A DNA stretch of 64,000 nt, taken from Escherichia coli (GTDB lineage Bacteria; Pseudomonadota; Gammaproteobacteria; Enterobacterales; Enterobacteriaceae). Position numbers and translations under genes: made by a program. This document shows positions 63 through 20,230 of this stretch, one piece after another. Each line of letters opens with the position of its first letter. Positions within the stretch are counted from its first letter, which is position 1. The notes beneath the pieces were generated by a model. That model saw only the letters and a program-made list of their open reading frames with translations, ran no database searches and was not told the DNA's origin. The stretch lies in NCBI RefSeq assembly GCF_024502345.1, contig NZ_JALDNN010000001.1. One strand, 5' to 3'.

Positions 63-1283
63 TGTAGATTCAATTGGTCAACGCAACAGTTATGTGAAAA
101 CATGGGGTTGCGGAGGTTTTTTGAATGAGACGAACATTTACAGCAGAGGAAAAAGCCTCTGTTTTTGAACTATGGAAGAACGGAACAGGCTTCAGTGAAA
201 TAGCGAATATCCTGGGTTCAAAACCCGGAACGATCTTCACTATGTTAAGGGATACTGGCGGCATAAAACCCCATGAGCGTAAGCGGGCTGTAGCTCACCT
301 GACACTGTCTGAGCGCGAGGAGATACGAGCTGGTTTGTCAGCCAAAATGAGCATTCGTGCGATAGCTACTGCGCTGAATCGCAGTCCTTCGACGATCTCA
401 CGTGAAGTTCAGCGTAATCGGGGCAGACGCTATTACAAAGCTGTTGATGCTAATAACCGAGCCAACAGAATGGCGAAAAGGCCAAAACCGTGCTTACTGG
501 ATCAAAATTTACCATTGCGAAAGCTTGTTCTGGAAAAGCTGGAGATGAAATGGTCTCCAGAGCAAATATCAGGATGGTTAAGGCGAACAAAACCACGTCA
601 AAAAACGCTGCGAATATCACCTGAGACAATTTATAAAACGCTGTACTTTCGTAGCCGTGAAGCGCTACACCACCTGAATATACAGCATCTGCGACGGTCG
701 CATAGCCTTCGCCATGGCAGGCGTCATACCCGCAAAGGCGAAAGAGGTACGATTAACATAGTGAACGGAACACCAATTCACGAACGTTCCCGAAATATCG
801 ATAACAGACGCTCTCTGGGGCATTGGGAGGGCGATTTAGTCTCAGGTACAAAAAACTCTCATATAGCCACACTTGTAGACCGAAAATCACGTTATACGAT
901 CATCCTTAGACTCAGGGGCAAAGATTCTGTCTCAGTAAATCAGGCTCTTACCGACAAATTCCTGAGTTTACCGTCAGAACTCAGAAAATCACTGACATGG
1001 GACAGAGGAATGGAACTGGCCAGACATCTAGAATTTACTGTCAGCACCGGCGTTAAAGTTTACTTCTGCGATCCTCAGAGTCCTTGGCAGCGGGGAACAA
1101 ATGAGAACACAAATGGGCTAATTCGGCAGTACTTTCCTAAAAAGACATGTCTTGCCCAATATACTCAACATGAACTAGATCTGGTTGCTGCTCAGCTAAA
1201 CAACAGACCGAGAAAGACACTGAAGTTCAAAACACCGAAAGAGATAATTGAAAGGGGTGTTGCATTGACAGATTGAATCTACA
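63..1283 (+). mobile_element. IS30, complete 1221-bp copy
   Basis: Starts TGTAGATTCAATTGGTCAACGC, ends GATTGAATCTACA (terminal inverted repeats); length 1221 bp; single 383-aa transposase ORF; flanked by 2-bp GC direct repeat. Confidence 0.9.
125..1276 (+). CDS. insI: IS30 transposase
   Basis: 383-aa ORF with N-terminal HTH and DDE transposase; matches IS30 InsI as I recall it. Confidence 0.93.
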   Translation: MRRTFTAEEKASVFELWKNGTGFSEIANILGSKPGTIFTMLRDTGGIKPHERKRAVAHLTLSEREEIRAGLSAKMSIRAIATALNRSPSTISREVQRNRGRRYYKAVDANNRANRMAKRPKPCLLDQNLPLRKLVLEKLEMKWSPEQISGWLRRTKPRQKTLRISPETIYKTLYFRSREALHHLNIQHLRRSHSLRHGRRHTRKGERGTINIVNGTPIHERSRNIDNRRSLGHWEGDLVSGTKNSHIATLVDRKSRYTIILRLRGKDSVSVNQALTDKFLSLPSELRKSLTWDRGMELARHLEFTVSTGVKVYFCDPQSPWQRGTNENTNGLIRQYFPKKTCLAQYTQHELDLVAAQLNNRPRKTLKFKTPKEIIERGVALTD

Positions 1284-15284: not shown

Positions 15285-15998
15285 TCAGAGCGGATTCTTT
15301 TTGTTGCGAATCAAGTTGAGGCTTTCAACCGCAATAGAGAAGAACATCGCGAAGTAGATGTAACCTTTCGGTACGTGGATGTCGAAACTTTCCAGAATCA
15401 GGGTAAAGCCCACCAGAATCAGGAAAGAGAGCGCCAGCATTTTTACCGAAGGATGGCGTTCGACAAAATCACCAATCGAGCGCGCGGCGAACATCATCAC
15501 GCCTACGGCAATCACCACGGCTGCCATCATAATAAACAGGTGATCTGACAGACCCACAGCCGTAATCACCGAGTCGAGGCTAAAGATAATATCCAGCAGC
15601 ATAATCTGCACGATAGCGCCGAGGAATGATGAAACGCGTGTTTTCAGCCCTTCTTCTTCACCTTCAATGGATTCGTGGATTTCCTTGCTGGCTTTCCAGA
15701 TAAGGAACAAGCCACCCAGAAGCAGAATCAAATCACGGGCAGAAATTTCCTGACTGAATATTGTAAAAAGCGGATTTGTCAGGCGCGTAACCCAGGCGAT
15801 TGATGCCAGCAGCGCCAGACGCATAACCATGGCTCCCGCCAACCCCAGACGGCGCGCATGAGCACGTTGTGCTGTGGGAAGCTTTGCCACCACCAGAGAA
15901 AGGAAAATAATATTGTCGATCCCAAGAACGATCTCCAGCAGCGTCAGCGTACCGAGCGCAAGCCAGGCGTTAGGATCGGTTATCCATGCAAATAACAT
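15285..15998 (-). CDS. ygdQ: TerC-family inner-membrane protein
   Basis: 237 aa multi-pass membrane protein. Confidence 0.85.
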
Positions 15999-16066
15999 CT
16001 AAAAAGCCCTGCCAAAAAAATGAAGCGGTAATTATATGCCCGGAAAGCGGCAGGTCAAAGCGATGG

Positions 16067-16756
16067 CTACTGGATCAGAAAATGACGGGCCAGTAGTGCA
16101 CTGGTGAAATTCTTCTTCAAATAAAAGCCGCGTGGCAGCGTCAGAATCCGTTCGCCCCGGGCACCAATGGCTTCGGTAAGCGCTTTCGCATTCGCTGCTT
16201 TCGGTCTTATCTGTAAATATTCCCCGTGACGAGCGGTGATCCGCTCAACCTGACCGAGAACAATCATATCCATTAATTCTTCCCAGTCTTCGCGTAGCTG
16301 TCGGTCTTCCTCTTCATTCGGGCTCCACAGCAACGGGGATCCTACGCGACGCTGCGCCAGCGGGATGCTGCGCTCGCCTTCAACCGGTATCCACAGTACG
16401 CGTTTGAGCTTGTGGCGCACGTGGCTGGTTTCCCAGGTCACCCCGCTATTACCCGTTAACGGGGCAACACAAACGAATGTTGTTTCCAGCGGACGACCAA
16501 GACTATCCACAGGGATAGTTTTAAGTTCCACGCCCAGAGCGGCAAAATCTTGCTCAGGTTTACTCCCTGCGCTGGCACCTAGCCAGATCTCCAGTAACAC
16601 GCCAATCCAGCCCTTATCGCGTTTTAAATTCTCTGGCGTAACCAGCCCGGCAAGTGCCGCCAGTTCTCCCAATGTATAACCAGAAAGTTGCTGTGCTTGC
16701 GCTAACAACTGTTCTTCAGTTTCGGGAGGAGAGAGCAGTGGGCGAGGTTGGGACAT
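16067..16756 (-). CDS. mutH: Methyl-directed mismatch-repair endonuclease
   Basis: 229 aa. Confidence 0.93.
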
Positions 16757-16899
16757 GTCATGATACCTTGATTAAAAAACAAACAGCAATTATGTGCCGA
16801 ATATTCGCAGTGTAACTTTTTCCACATGTGTTGTTCAATTCTCTGATTTATATTGCTTTTTAGGCTGCCGGTAATCGAGTTGCGCAACACTGCAATAGG

Positions 16900-17300
16900 T
16901 TTTCCAAATCTGGTCACTGAAAATAAACAGGATCTTACACCATGTTATCCACAGAAAGCTGGGATAACTGTGAAAAACCTCCACTACTGTTTCCATTTAC
17001 AGCCTTGACGTGCGATGAAACTCCAGTTTTTAGTGGTTCAGTGCTTAACTTAGTGGCACATTCTGTGGATAAATACGGCATTGGTTGATCTTTCGCCAAC
17101 CCGTAAATGAGAGGTGTGACCTGGGTCACGAATTACTCTTTTTCATTACTCAAATTACATGTAATGCATTGACTAATAATGAATATTTTAAAATGTCTAT
17201 ATCGGGTTTATTCAGAATGCTCCGGGTTTTCCCGTAGTAATTCCGTAGTTCTTCACAACTCTATCCACAGAAAAGGTGAATAAAAACGGCTATTCACCCC
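16900..17300. promoter_or_regulatory. Probable DARS2 (DnaA-reactivating sequence 2) DnaA-box cluster
   Basis: TTATCCACA at 16945-16953 (+) and inverted copy at 17064-17072, a further CTATCCACA near 17261; I recall DARS2 as lying in the mutH-rppH(ygdP) intergenic region; boundaries approximate. Confidence 0.5.
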
Positions 17301-17440
17301 TTCCTCTGTTTATAACTCTGCACATAACTGTGAGTTATTCAATTGTTATTAGTGTGTAATGCCCTGCAGAGAGTGGTTTACCGTCTTCCTGGAGTATGAA
17401 ACAATCATTCGTATATAAAGCTTTATTTTGAGGTAGTCCG

Positions 17441-17971
17441 GTGATTGATGACGATGGCTACCGCCCAAACGTAGGTATCGTGATTTGTAATCGCCAGGGG
17501 CAGGTAATGTGGGCCCGGCGATTTGGTCAGCACTCCTGGCAATTTCCGCAAGGCGGAATCAACCCCGGAGAATCCGCAGAGCAGGCGATGTACCGTGAAT
17601 TGTTTGAAGAAGTAGGATTAAGCCGCAAAGACGTTCGAATCCTTGCTTCAACGCGTAACTGGTTGCGCTACAAATTACCGAAACGTTTGGTGCGTTGGGA
17701 CACGAAGCCGGTTTGTATCGGCCAAAAACAAAAATGGTTTCTCTTGCAGCTGGTAAGCGGCGATGCAGAAATCAATATGCAAACCAGCAGTACACCAGAG
17801 TTTGACGGCTGGCGATGGGTAAGTTACTGGTATCCGGTCAGACAGGTGGTGTCATTTAAACGTGATGTCTACCGTAGGGTAATGAAAGAGTTCGCGAGTG
17901 TGGTGATGTCACTGCAGGAAAATACGCCAAAACCACAAAACGCATCTGCTTATCGACGTAAAAGAGGTTAA
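17441..17971 (+). CDS. rppH: RNA pyrophosphohydrolase (Nudix)
   Basis: 176 aa with Nudix box. Confidence 0.93.
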
Positions 17972-17983
17972 GTCACGCCAATT

Positions 17984-20230
17984 ATGCTCACTCGCCTGCG
18001 CGAAATAGTCGAAAAGGTAGCCAGCGCACCACGCCTGAATGAGGCGTTAAATATTCTGGTTACCGACATCTGTCTTGCGATGGATACCGAGGTCTGTTCG
18101 GTCTACCTGGCCGATCATGATCGACGTTGTTACTACCTGATGGCGACCCGGGGGCTGAAAAAACCACGCGGTCGCACTGTAACGCTCGCGTTTGATGAAG
18201 GGATCGTCGGCCTGGTTGGCAGGCTGGCGGAACCGATAAACCTTGCAGATGCGCAAAAGCACCCCAGCTTCAAATACATCCCCTCCGTAAAAGAAGAACG
18301 TTTCCGCGCGTTTTTAGGCGTACCAATTATTCAACGTCGCCAGTTGCTTGGTGTACTGGTGGTACAGCAACGAGAGTTGCGCCAGTATGACGAAAGTGAA
18401 GAATCCTTCCTGGTGACGCTTGCCACCCAGATGGCAGCTATTCTTTCTCAGTCGCAGTTGACTGCCTTGTTTGGGCAATATCGCCAGACGCGAATCCGCG
18501 CATTACCGGCAGCACCTGGTGTGGCGATTGCCGAAGGCTGGCAGGATGCCACGTTACCTTTAATGGAACAGGTGTATCAGGCATCAACGCTGGATCCGGC
18601 TCTGGAACGCGAACGACTGACCGGGGCGCTGGAAGAAGCGGCAAACGAGTTTCGCCGCTACAGCAAACGCTTTGCCGCCGGAGCACAAAAAGAAACGGCG
18701 GCTATTTTCGATCTTTACTCGCACCTACTTTCGGACACCCGGCTGCGTCGCGAATTGTTTGCCGAGGTTGATAAAGGCTCGGTGGCAGAGTGGGCGGTAA
18801 AAACGGTCATTGAAAAATTTGCCGAACAGTTTGCCGCGCTAAGCGATAACTATCTCAAAGAGCGGGCTGGCGATTTACGTGCGCTGGGTCAGCGATTGCT
18901 GTTTCATCTTGATGACGCTAATCAAGGGCCGAACGCCTGGCCGGAACGTTTCATTCTGGTGGCAGATGAACTGTCAGCGACAACTCTTGCTGAGCTGCCC
19001 CAGGATCGCTTAGTCGGTGTTGTCGTGCGAGATGGCGCAGCCAACTCCCATGCTGCGATCATGGTACGTGCGCTGGGGATCCCTACCGTGATGGGCGCGG
19101 ATATTCAGCCTTCGGTGCTGCATCGTAGGACGCTGATCGTTGATGGCTATCGCGGTGAATTGCTGGTCGATCCGGAGCCGGTACTGCTGCAAGAATATCA
19201 GCGGCTAATTAGTGAAGAGATTGAGCTTAGCCGTCTGGCGGAAGATGACGTCAATTTACCCGCGCAGTTAAAAAGCGGTGAGCGTATAAAAGTCATGCTC
19301 AATGCTGGTTTAAGCCCGGAACATGAAGAAAAACTGGGCAGCCGTATTGATGGCATCGGTCTTTATCGCACTGAAATCCCATTCATGCTGCAAAGTGGTT
19401 TCCCGTCGGAAGAAGAACAGGTGGCGCAGTATCAGGGGATGCTGCAAATGTTCAATGATAAACCCGTCACCTTGCGTACGCTGGATGTCGGAGCAGATAA
19501 GCAGCTGCCTTACATGCCGATCAGCGAAGAGAATCCATGCCTGGGTTGGCGTGGGATTCGCATTACGCTCGATCAGCCGGAGATCTTCTTGATCCAGGTG
19601 CGGGCGATGCTGCGTGCTAATGCCGCTACGGGCAACCTGAATATTCTGTTGCCGATGGTCACAAGCCTCGATGAAGTTGATGAAGCACGCCGCCTGATTG
19701 AACGTGCCGGACGTGAAGTCGAGGAGATGATCGGTTACGAAATTCCCAAACCACGTATCGGCATCATGCTGGAAGTGCCGTCAATGGTATTTATGCTGCC
19801 GCATCTGGCAAAGCGGGTCGATTTCATCTCTGTTGGCACCAACGATCTGACTCAATACATTCTGGCCGTTGATCGCAACAATACCCGGGTGGCGAACATT
19901 TATGACAGTCTTCATCCTGCAATGTTACGAGCTCTGGCGATGATCGCCCGGGAAGCGGAAATACATGGTATCGATCTCCGTTTGTGCGGTGAAATGGCGG
20001 GCGATCCCATGTGCGTGGCAATCCTCATTGGGCTTGGGTATCGCCATCTGTCTATGAACGGACGTTCTGTAGCGCGGGTAAAATACCTGCTGCGGCGCAT
20101 TGATTTTGCCGAAGCAGAAAATCTTGCGCAGCGTAGTCTGGAAGCGCAACTGGCGACCGAAGTTCGCCATCAGGTTGCAGCCTTTATGGAGCGTCGCGGC
20201 ATGGGCGGGCTGATTCGCGGAGGGTTATAG
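17984..20230 (+). CDS. ptsP: Nitrogen-PTS enzyme I (EI-Ntr) with GAF domain
   Basis: 748 aa. Confidence 0.93.
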   Translation: MLTRLREIVEKVASAPRLNEALNILVTDICLAMDTEVCSVYLADHDRRCYYLMATRGLKKPRGRTVTLAFDEGIVGLVGRLAEPINLADAQKHPSFKYIPSVKEERFRAFLGVPIIQRRQLLGVLVVQQRELRQYDESEESFLVTLATQMAAILSQSQLTALFGQYRQTRIRALPAAPGVAIAEGWQDATLPLMEQVYQASTLDPALERERLTGALEEAANEFRRYSKRFAAGAQKETAAIFDLYSHLLSDTRLRRELFAEVDKGSVAEWAVKTVIEKFAEQFAALSDNYLKERAGDLRALGQRLLFHLDDANQGPNAWPERFILVADELSATTLAELPQDRLVGVVVRDGAANSHAAIMVRALGIPTVMGADIQPSVLHRRTLIVDGYRGELLVDPEPVLLQEYQRLISEEIELSRLAEDDVNLPAQLKSGERIKVMLNAGLSPEHEEKLGSRIDGIGLYRTEIPFMLQSGFPSEEEQVAQYQGMLQMFNDKPVTLRTLDVGADKQLPYMPISEENPCLGWRGIRITLDQPEIFLIQVRAMLRANAATGNLNILLPMVTSLDEVDEARRLIERAGREVEEMIGYEIPKPRIGIMLEVPSMVFMLPHLAKRVDFISVGTNDLTQYILAVDRNNTRVANIYDSLHPAMLRALAMIAREAEIHGIDLRLCGEMAGDPMCVAILIGLGYRHLSMNGRSVARVKYLLRRIDFAEAENLAQRSLEAQLATEVRHQVAAFMERRGMGGLIRGGL

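Follow-up and report, generated by a model that had tools for sequence, protein, structure and literature searches.

The intergenic region between mutH and rppH in Escherichia coli raises a simple question: what are the two perfect DnaA boxes that it holds, TTATCCACA occurring exactly twice in the 64-kb stretch of DNA that was analysed (hereafter the window), at 16945-16953 on the plus strand and, inverted, at 17064-17072? The region is bounded by mutH (16067-16756, minus strand; an ORF of 229 aa, 99.6% identical to MutH of strain MG1655) and by rppH, also called nudH or ygdP (17441-17971, plus strand; 176 aa, 99.4% identical to RppH of MG1655), and the gap between them therefore extends over 684 bp, from 16757 to 17440. 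Further out lie ygdQ (15285-15998, minus strand) near mutH and ptsP (17984-20230, plus strand) near rppH. Compared with the RefSeq table of MG1655, the gene order of E. coli K-12 is retained, on the opposite strand in the window. The gap aligns with MG1655 without indels, at about 99% identity with 9 differences, and this alignment provides the conversion used throughout (NC_000913.3 position = 2986418 - window coordinate). A search of 5,426 complete E. coli genomes recovered the intergenic region in 5,424, with an identity of at least 95% and a top match of 99.7%.

An earlier note, made from the letters of the sequence, had described this interval as consistent with DARS2 (DnaA-reactivating sequence 2), a site between mutH and ygdP. 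Published primers and oligonucleotides, the geometry of the core and the identity with MG1655 all support this reading, and the interval is almost certainly the DARS2 of E. coli. The position agrees as well, both for the flanking genes and for the literature, which sites DARS2 upstream of mutH (Frimodt-Moller 2015; also the DnaA ChIP-seq paper). Since this gap is the well-studied DARS2, the finding is correct but already known: DARS2 is a textbook element here and not a novelty.

A search of the whole window confirmed the two perfect boxes, as well as a third box that had been noticed near 17261 and proved to be CTATCCACA at 17261-17269. Could such boxes have gathered by accident in AT-rich intergenic DNA? 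Shuffled sequences contain 0.33 copies of the perfect box on average, and two copies somewhere in the window were reached by 5 of 100 shuffles, which gives this explanation some room. However, the 684 bp hold both of these copies and also four of the seven matches of the window to the relaxed consensus TTWTNCACA (at 16818, 16945, 16969 and 17064), whereas shuffles, with an average of 5.29 matches in 64 kb, lead to an expectation of about 0.06 in an interval of this size; by our own arithmetic, the Poisson probability of at least four matches in the gap is about 4e-7. Furthermore, the positions of the boxes are constant to about 3 bp over four Enterobacterales families, and DnaA occupies them in vivo according to ChIP-seq published for MG1655. 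The clustering of relaxed matches, the occupancy and the positional conservation together refute the chance cluster, whose probability can be regarded as negligible.

The original paper on the discovery of DARS is reportedly that of Fujimitsu 2009. The attribution made here is drawn from later papers, from the same and from other laboratories. Published primers and oligonucleotides from the supplements of Kasho 2014 and Miyoshi 2021 and from the methods of Frimodt-Moller 2015 were mapped to the window by script, and all 33 that were tested map once each with at most one mismatch. They delimit the full-length element, its core, a critical 21-mer, the IHF sites IBS1-2, the Fis sites FBS1 to FBS6 and the DnaA boxes IV to VI. 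The published full-length fragment, amplified by primers MutH-2/MutH-4, is exactly 455 bp long and covers 16852-17306, thus entirely inside the interval; it corresponds to NC_000913.3 2969112-2969566 and reads on the opposite strand in the window. The minimal DARS2 of the deltaRight construct (pOA67) extends from 17074, where primer MutH-11 maps (17074-17094), to 17306 and contains the core, box IV, IBS1-2, FBS1 and FBS2-3. The deltaRight construct is still active according to the literature, and loss of the next 21 bp abolished activity. Besides, a box-like 9-mer on the minus strand, TTATAAACA (17307-15), lies 1 bp outside the published fragment; it is conserved at offset +44 to +46 and is a perfect box in Arsenophonus.

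The core is the 35-bp segment 17249-17283, removed in the published deltaCore/deltaDARS2 alleles and flanked by primers MutH-14/MutH-15 and also by the MutH-9/MutH-10 arms. It comprises three DnaA boxes, each with one mismatch: box III (TTCTTCACA, 17249-17257, plus strand), box II (CTATCCACA, 17261-17269, plus strand), placed head-to-tail with box III across a 3-bp gap, and box I (TTATTCACC on the minus strand, 17275-17283), which faces box II head-to-head at a distance of 5 bp. The same arrangement defines a DARS core in a review and in a primary paper, with box I opposed to boxes II and III and gaps of 5 bp and 3 bp. PMC6868365 explicitly puts 5 bp between box I and box II, the single mismatch of DARS2 box II is reported in the literature (this paper included), and gTTCTTCACAactCTATCCACAg is the DARS2 double box of the DnaA ChIP-seq paper. 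The window contains a single copy of the signature TATCCACA-N6-GTGNATAA, and 100 shuffles produced none.

The spacing and orientation expected of a DARS core are thus present, and it is the imperfect core boxes that provide them rather than the perfect pair. By the mapping, the first of the boxes noticed is box VI, the second is box V and the third is core box II. The opposed pair of the core is II/I, and the opposed boxes initially pointed out, VI and V, are accessory ones that lie 110 bp from each other. For this reason the two perfect boxes were rejected as the head-to-head pair of DARS.

A core of identical architecture is found in DARS1, located in the bioD-uvrB intergenic region: box III is separated by 3 bp from box II, and box II by 5 bp from an inverted box I. 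In the MG1655 sequence that carries it (L002), the DARS1 core boxes lie at 508-516 (plus), 522-530 (minus) and 534-542 (minus), with the orientation pattern and gaps of DARS2, and both elements share the signature TATCCACAG-N5-GTGnATAA. They also differ in several respects. Box II of DARS1 is a perfect consensus, whereas each core box of DARS2 has one mismatch. DARS1 is 101 bp long, is independent of IHF and Fis and is weaker in vivo than DARS2; it possesses neither the IBS or FBS regions nor boxes IV to VI, all present in DARS2.

The accessory sites of DARS2 could be located with the same primers. Box IV (TTATTCAGA, one mismatch, plus strand) lies at 17208-17216, the subDnaAboxIV primers Ksh-30/Ksh-31 flanking 17207-17216. 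The IHF sites, IBS1 (17162-74, plus) and IBS2 (17178-90, minus), form a block (17162-17190) that is moved in the published traIBS primers. Each 13-mer has one mismatch to TAANNNNTTGATW, and they are 3 bp apart, as in the literature. The block is centred at about 17176, some 88 bp from the core and some 88 bp from FBS2-3, and the literature indeed describes the IHF sites as about equidistant between core and Fis sites. The non-essential Fis site FBS1 (17123-17138; subFBS1 primers Ksh-3/Ksh-4) includes a perfect match to GNNYANNNNNTRNNC at 17124-38. The critical 21-mer (17073-17093; delta21 primers MutH-24/MutH-25), with the essential Fis sites FBS2-3, is identical to that of MG1655, where it is essential in vitro and in vivo; the published FBS2-3 substitution spans 17080-17097 (primers Ksh-20/Ksh-21).

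Box V (perfect TTATCCACA, 17064-17072, minus strand; subDnaAboxV primers Ksh-32/Ksh-33) is the second of the boxes noticed at the outset and is enclosed by FBS4-5 (17055-17076). The published FBS2-5 oligonucleotide (Miyoshi 2021) is identical to 17051-17102. Around box V and in the same orientation, three low-affinity boxes are distributed over 17052-17093, namely V-a (~17052-60), V-b (~17074-82) and V-c (~17085-93), positions that are approximate since they were deduced by hand from the bases altered in the published subV-a, subV-b and subV-c oligonucleotides. Box VI (perfect TTATCCACA, 16945-16953, plus strand; subDnaAboxVI primers Ksh-34/Ksh-35), the first of the boxes noticed, is preceded by a weak box, TCTTACACC (16933-41), with a gap of 3 bp. 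A further Fis site, the non-essential FBS6 (subFBS6 primers Ksh-9/Ksh-10), lies at 16882-16897 and differs from MG1655 at 16896-97.

Two other features accompany box VI. Its surroundings (TCTTACACC, 3 bp, TTATCCACA, 6 bp, inverted TTATCC) were considered as a second core and rejected as such, because the gap is 6 bp and not 5 and because the inverted element is conserved only in its TTATCC half. A match to the relaxed consensus, TTTTTCACA (16969-16977, minus strand), for which no published name was found, also occurs in E. albertii, Citrobacter and Providencia and is absent from the other genera examined.

The DARS2 of MG1655 (Kasho 2014; Miyoshi 2021; Kasho 2025) occupies the same locus between mutH and rppH and is identical to that of the window at 447 of 455 bases, including the core, the 9-mers of boxes IV, V and VI, the IHF 13-mers, the Fis 21-mer and all the spacings. 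The 8 differing positions are 16865, 16896-97, 17016, 17151, 17175, 17207 and 17294, and all of them spare the 9-mer DnaA boxes, the IHF 13-mers and the Fis 21-mer. The non-essential FBS6 has two of these substitutions (16896-97); 17175 belongs to the 3 bp that separate IBS1 from IBS2, 17207 is just 5' of box IV and 17294 is left of the core; the remaining three are in spacers. Judged by its sequence, the element is an allele of that of MG1655 and not a variant kind. What can be observed in this strain is the identity of the sequence and the intact geometry of the sites, and the function is presumed from this identity.

The mechanism described hereafter comes from published work on MG1655, whose element is nearly identical, and would apply to this strain by virtue of that near-identity. 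In MG1655, DARS2 promotes the IHF- and Fis-dependent release of ADP from ADP-DnaA, and the allele of the window presumably does the same. ADP-DnaA would bind the three imperfect core boxes. The protomers bound to box II (17261-69) and box I (17275-83) would then make a head-to-head AAA+ contact (Gln208) over the 5-bp gap, leading to the expulsion of ADP, while the protomer on box III (17249-57) would stabilise the oligomer in a head-to-tail manner. The nucleotide-free DnaA would dissociate and subsequently rebind ATP. The core alone is expected to be weak: the bend introduced by IHF at IBS1-2 (17162-90), about 88 bp away, would switch it on by apposing Fis bound to FBS2-3 (17073-97), about 88 bp beyond, to the core complex. 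Binding of IHF would be stabilised by negative supercoiling. When ATP-DnaA is abundant, it would nucleate on the perfect box V (17064-72), spread over V-a, V-b and V-c and displace Fis, a negative feedback that would turn DARS2 off. Boxes IV and VI would also bind DnaA, each being probably dispensable as in the plasmid assays.

In the published work, activity depends in vitro and in vivo on both IHF at IBS1-2 and Fis at FBS2-3, and the placement of these sites is important. Deletion of DARS2 makes initiation delayed and asynchronous, and it lowers fitness (Frimodt-Moller 2015). In MG1655, not in the strain considered here, DnaA ChIP-seq gives peaks at 2969124, 2969306 and 2969501, equivalent to about 17294, 17112 and 16917 in the window, which map to the core, box V and box VI clusters respectively; the third has a coverage of 213 and is assigned to the double box tCTTACACCAtgTTATCCACAg. 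It should be added that the ChIP-seq paper states NC_000913.2 while its coordinates fit the.3 numbering.

The ChIP-seq coverages could be read in another manner, the cluster being mainly a passive sink that titrates DnaA, as datA is in the titration model. The perfect boxes give the strongest signals of the locus (199 and 213, versus 78 at the core), and a 2025 study argues for titration of DnaA on chromosomal boxes, including those of DARS and datA. A sink of this type is nevertheless very unlikely to be what the locus mainly is, given that extra copies of DARS2 stimulate initiation instead of delaying it, that activity requires IHF, Fis and the low-affinity core, and that single substitution of box IV, V or VI in plasmid-borne DARS2 did not abolish its initiation-stimulating activity. 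datA does resemble DARS2: it too is a group of DnaA boxes on the chromosome that includes an IHF site, and timed binding of IHF to it sets the nucleotide state of DnaA. However, it drives the opposite reaction, the hydrolysis of DnaA-bound ATP, acts on ATP-DnaA and does not need Fis. The DnaA-oligomerisation region of oriC likewise combines DnaA boxes of graded affinity with IHF and Fis sites, and its cooperative binding of ATP-DnaA, nucleated at a high-affinity box, recalls box V with V-a, V-b and V-c. In oriC, the boxes are head-to-tail and an adjacent AT-rich element is unwound, whereas DARS2 lacks a duplex-unwinding element and its boxes I and II are head-to-head.

Yet another role was considered, in which boxes V and VI and the match at 16818-26 would mainly be DnaA operators controlling mutH, rppH or ygdT and not parts of a recharging device. 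A promoter scan returned one sigma-70-like match, for mutH (16816-16789), the count of such matches being not above that of shuffles, and TTTTCCACA (16818-26) abuts the -35 of this sole match. Furthermore, DnaA is a transcription factor at other double boxes, and DARS1 also lies within a promoter region, that of uvrB. Against this, deletion of the 35-bp core, with these boxes retained, abolishes the effect of DARS2 on ATP-DnaA and initiation, and DnaA-dependent expression of mutH or rppH was not found in the literature. Regulation of this kind is compatible with DARS2 function, at most as a second role, and is unlikely to be the main one. Recharging of DnaA by DARS2 stays the preferred reading of the cluster.

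The core is not restricted to Escherichia. When CACA-N4-TATCCACA-N6-GTGNATAA was scanned in one genome per species, at least 120 matches were obtained, and those listed are spread across gamma- and beta-proteobacteria. Enterobacterial matches were sorted into two groups by tblastn with MutH, RppH, PtsP, UvrB and BioD. Among the matches listed, the DARS2-like group, adjoining mutH/rppH, includes Yersinia, Citrobacter, two Enterobacter, Photorhabdus, Providencia, Arsenophonus, Acerihabitans, Superficieibacter, E. albertii and Enterovibrio, and the second, DARS1-like group adjoins uvrB or bioD. Genomes of Legionella contain the core trio 5 to 8 times in perfect form among the matches listed.

Flanking DNA was sufficient in nine orthologues, and these have a perfect box VI at -313 to -316 from box II and a perfect box V at -194 to -198. 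A match to the IHF consensus with at most one mismatch was present near the expected offset in only some of these nine, and conservation of the IHF sites is therefore less supported than that of the DnaA boxes. An alignment of 10 Enterobacterales sequences reveals invariant islands between freely varying DNA. These islands are 16925-54 (AACAGGATCTTACACC-nn-TTATCCACAG, which contains GATC), 16962-67 (GGATAA), 16986-17009 (ACTG...AT..ACAG..TTGAC), box V (CTGTGGATAA) and the core.

Part of this conserved DNA is covered by an annotated gene. The only ORFs of the interval were at first said to be two short ones on the minus strand, 16702-16917 (71 aa) and 16935-17129 (64 aa). Both exist, but the plus strand also carries ygdT (16942-17088, 48 aa), an ORF annotated by RefSeq in E. 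coli genomes, whose start is 3 bp ahead of box VI and whose end is just past box V. A genuine protein-coding ygdT, of which the conservation and the placement of the boxes would be by-products, could be argued from this annotation, from the intact ORF of E. albertii and from the fact that the sole MG1655 difference inside the ORF (17016) is synonymous (GAT vs GAC). However, outside Escherichia the start is lost or the frame interrupted in all eight sequences: a stop precedes codon 41 in seven of them, and in the eighth, that of Yersinia, TAT replaces the ATG. Conservation shows no codon periodicity and is confined to discrete DNA blocks (box VI, GGATAA, CTG-N10-CAG, TTGAC and box V) that are separated by variable DNA; the apparently conserved 'residues' coincide with these embedded motifs, which stay invariant. 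No NCBIfam model matches YgdT.

The coding explanation was thus rejected, the ORF being not conserved outside Escherichia and the conservation residing in DNA blocks, and a real ygdT gene has a very low probability. From these comparisons, ygdT is probably not a conserved coding gene and is doubtful as a gene, and on the evidence of the alignment the conservation within it is explained by function at the DNA level. Although RefSeq annotates ygdT, the non-coding label first given to the interval agrees with this comparative analysis. The remark that DARS2 is often left unannotated likewise agrees with the RefSeq feature table of MG1655, where the mutH-rppH stretch contains no DARS2 feature. Other kinds of elements were sought in the surrounding DNA. 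An Rfam scan of 15900-18100 with a permissive threshold gave no credible RNA family, its sole match being a nematode snoRNA (E = 0.63) inside mutH. A terminator scan returned two terminator-like hairpins, a count not above that of shuffles, one of which is the palindrome of FBS1.

The invariant blocks also extend into the right half of DARS2 (16852-17073). This half is dispensable in plasmid over-initiation assays and has nevertheless held blocks that are invariant in Enterobacterales, and it may therefore not be inert, a possibility that we put forward tentatively and regard as more doubtful than not. One of these blocks includes a candidate operator, TACTGTTTCCATTTACAGCC (16985-17004), a LexA-like palindrome of the form CTG-N10-CAG that matches, by our count, 14 of the 20 positions of the LexA consensus TACTGTATATATATACAGTA; its ACTG, AT and ACAG are invariant in the 10 Enterobacterales sequences. 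A LexA operator is expected to be a CTGT-N8-ACAG palindrome around an AT-rich centre. The block was scored with an approximate matrix built from 24 operators, the sole one verified being that of uvrB, in L002. With this approximate matrix, the block ranks second among about 64,000 positions, with a score of 12.5 compared with 13.2 for the weakest training site, and in the nine orthologues this same offset holds the highest-scoring LexA-like site of the entire region (7.3 to 18.2). By itself, the LexA core pattern turns up in 19% of shuffles and is not beyond chance in the window, and the evidence therefore consists of conservation only.

The candidate lies 228 bp from the ATG of mutH and 276 bp from core box II. 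A study of the SOS response in Salmonella attributes to mutH one SOS box at 228 bp from the ATG, with a heterology index of 12.99 and no follow-up, and reports a 3.58-fold induction of mutH by nalidixic acid. Apart from this Salmonella table, the literature searches found LexA linked neither to DARS2 nor to mutH of E. coli. No sigma-70-like promoter match overlaps the block and none could be assigned by eye; the block lies about 200 bp upstream of the sole promoter-like match of mutH, which argues against simple repression.

A CRP-like palindrome (17115-30, TGTGA-N6-TCACg) that is not beyond chance within the window overlaps FBS1. E. albertii has a perfect TGTGA-N6-TCACA here, and three other Enterobacteriaceae retain the palindrome with one mismatch and different spacers.

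The element of the window departs nowhere from the published DARS2 and therefore raises no new question by itself. The alike placement of boxes V and VI over deep divergence, together with the LexA-like and CRP-like blocks and the outlying 9-mer, is of modest value, and the comparative results indicate parts of the locus that published mutagenesis left unprobed. It should be emphasized that DARS2 is the main device regenerating ATP-DnaA before each round of E. coli replication. Labelling it in a genome scan is thus useful, as RefSeq carries no DARS2 and instead places the doubtful 48-aa ygdT across it. If LexA binds its candidate site, DARS2/mutH would resemble DARS1/uvrB: in both cases the regulatory DNA of a repair gene would contain a DnaA-recharging site, and SOS signalling could influence the expression of mutH or the activity of DARS2.

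DARS2, the DnaA-reactivating site of the mutH-rppH gap, has probably given rise to an annotation artefact: the RefSeq gene ygdT, a plus-strand ORF of 48 aa at 16942-17088. This ORF starts 3 bp ahead of the accessory DnaA box VI (16945-16953) and ends just beyond accessory box V (17064-17072). The ORF is broken or devoid of an ATG in all eight non-Escherichia sequences compared, and the DNA motifs that it contains are invariant across these same sequences.

The longest invariant block at the locus, 16921-16968, is the neighbourhood of box VI. This block reads AACAGGATCTTACACC-nn-TTATCCACAG, includes a GATC at 16931-16934 and is followed, 8 bp further, by an invariant GGATAA. Around box VI, a weak box is followed after 3 bp by the perfect box and, 6 bp later, by an inverted TTATCC half-site. 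This layout loosely resembles that of the DARS2 core, although the inverted element retains only half a box.

Between boxes VI and V lies a LexA-operator-like palindrome, TACTGTTTCCATTTACAGCC (CTG-N10-CAG, 16985-17004), whose arms are unchanged across 10 Enterobacterales sequences; the TTGAC that directly follows (17005-17009) is likewise invariant. This palindrome is located 228 bp from the mutH ATG, exactly the distance listed in a table of a Salmonella study for an unvalidated mutH SOS box (228 bp, heterology index of 12.99). No connection between LexA and DARS2 was found in the literature searched. Another palindrome, TGTGAcctgggTCACg (17115-17130), resembles the CRP consensus and overlaps the non-essential Fis site FBS1. 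Its E. albertii counterpart is a perfect TGTGA-N6-TCACA, and versions with one mismatch and differing spacers are found in Citrobacter and two Enterobacter. In the window alone, such palindromes are within chance (five matches with at most one mismatch versus 1.8 expected).

DnaA-box-like 9-mers also occur beyond the published 455-bp DARS2 fragment. One of them, TTATAAACA (17307-17315, minus strand, one mismatch), lies 1 bp beyond the left end of this fragment and is kept in nine other sequences, at an offset of +44 to +46 from box II of the core; its Arsenophonus counterpart is a perfect TTATCCACA. The other, TTTTCCACA (16818-16826, plus strand), lies outside DARS2 and matches exactly the relaxed DnaA consensus. 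It adjoins the -35 element (GTTACA, 16816-16811) of the sole sigma-70-like promoter match upstream of mutH and is conserved only in E. albertii and Citrobacter.

Scanning genome contigs for a 19-base DARS-core signature gave at least 120 matches (L003-L122). Those listed come from gamma- and beta-proteobacteria, among them Pseudomonas, Xanthomonas, Vibrio, Shewanella, Nitrosomonas, Bordetella and Ralstonia, in addition to a few from Acetobacteraceae and two contigs of Firmicutes, and many genomes have two listed matches apiece; only enterobacterial matches were sorted into DARS1-like and DARS2-like. The genome of Legionella rowbothamii (L034-L037) has five perfect DARS-core-like trios and that of L. 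nagasakiensis (L110-L116) has eight. The Legionella trios are laid out as CACA, 3 bp, TTATCCACA, 5 bp, TGTGGATAA; the copies L110, L112, L114 and L116 share a flank of about 60 bp, and the flanks of other copies are unrelated.

Within E. coli, no allele identical to 16757-17440 was present among the matches listed from 5,426 complete genomes, where the closest reached 99.7%, and only 1,204 genomes show at least 99% identity. The K-12 reference MG1655 differs from the window at 9 positions over this interval. Two of them, 16896-16897, fall in FBS6, a non-essential Fis site of DARS2, and read CG in MG1655. Since both the window and E. albertii carry TA there, this sequence comparison suggests that the MG1655 CG may be the derived state.
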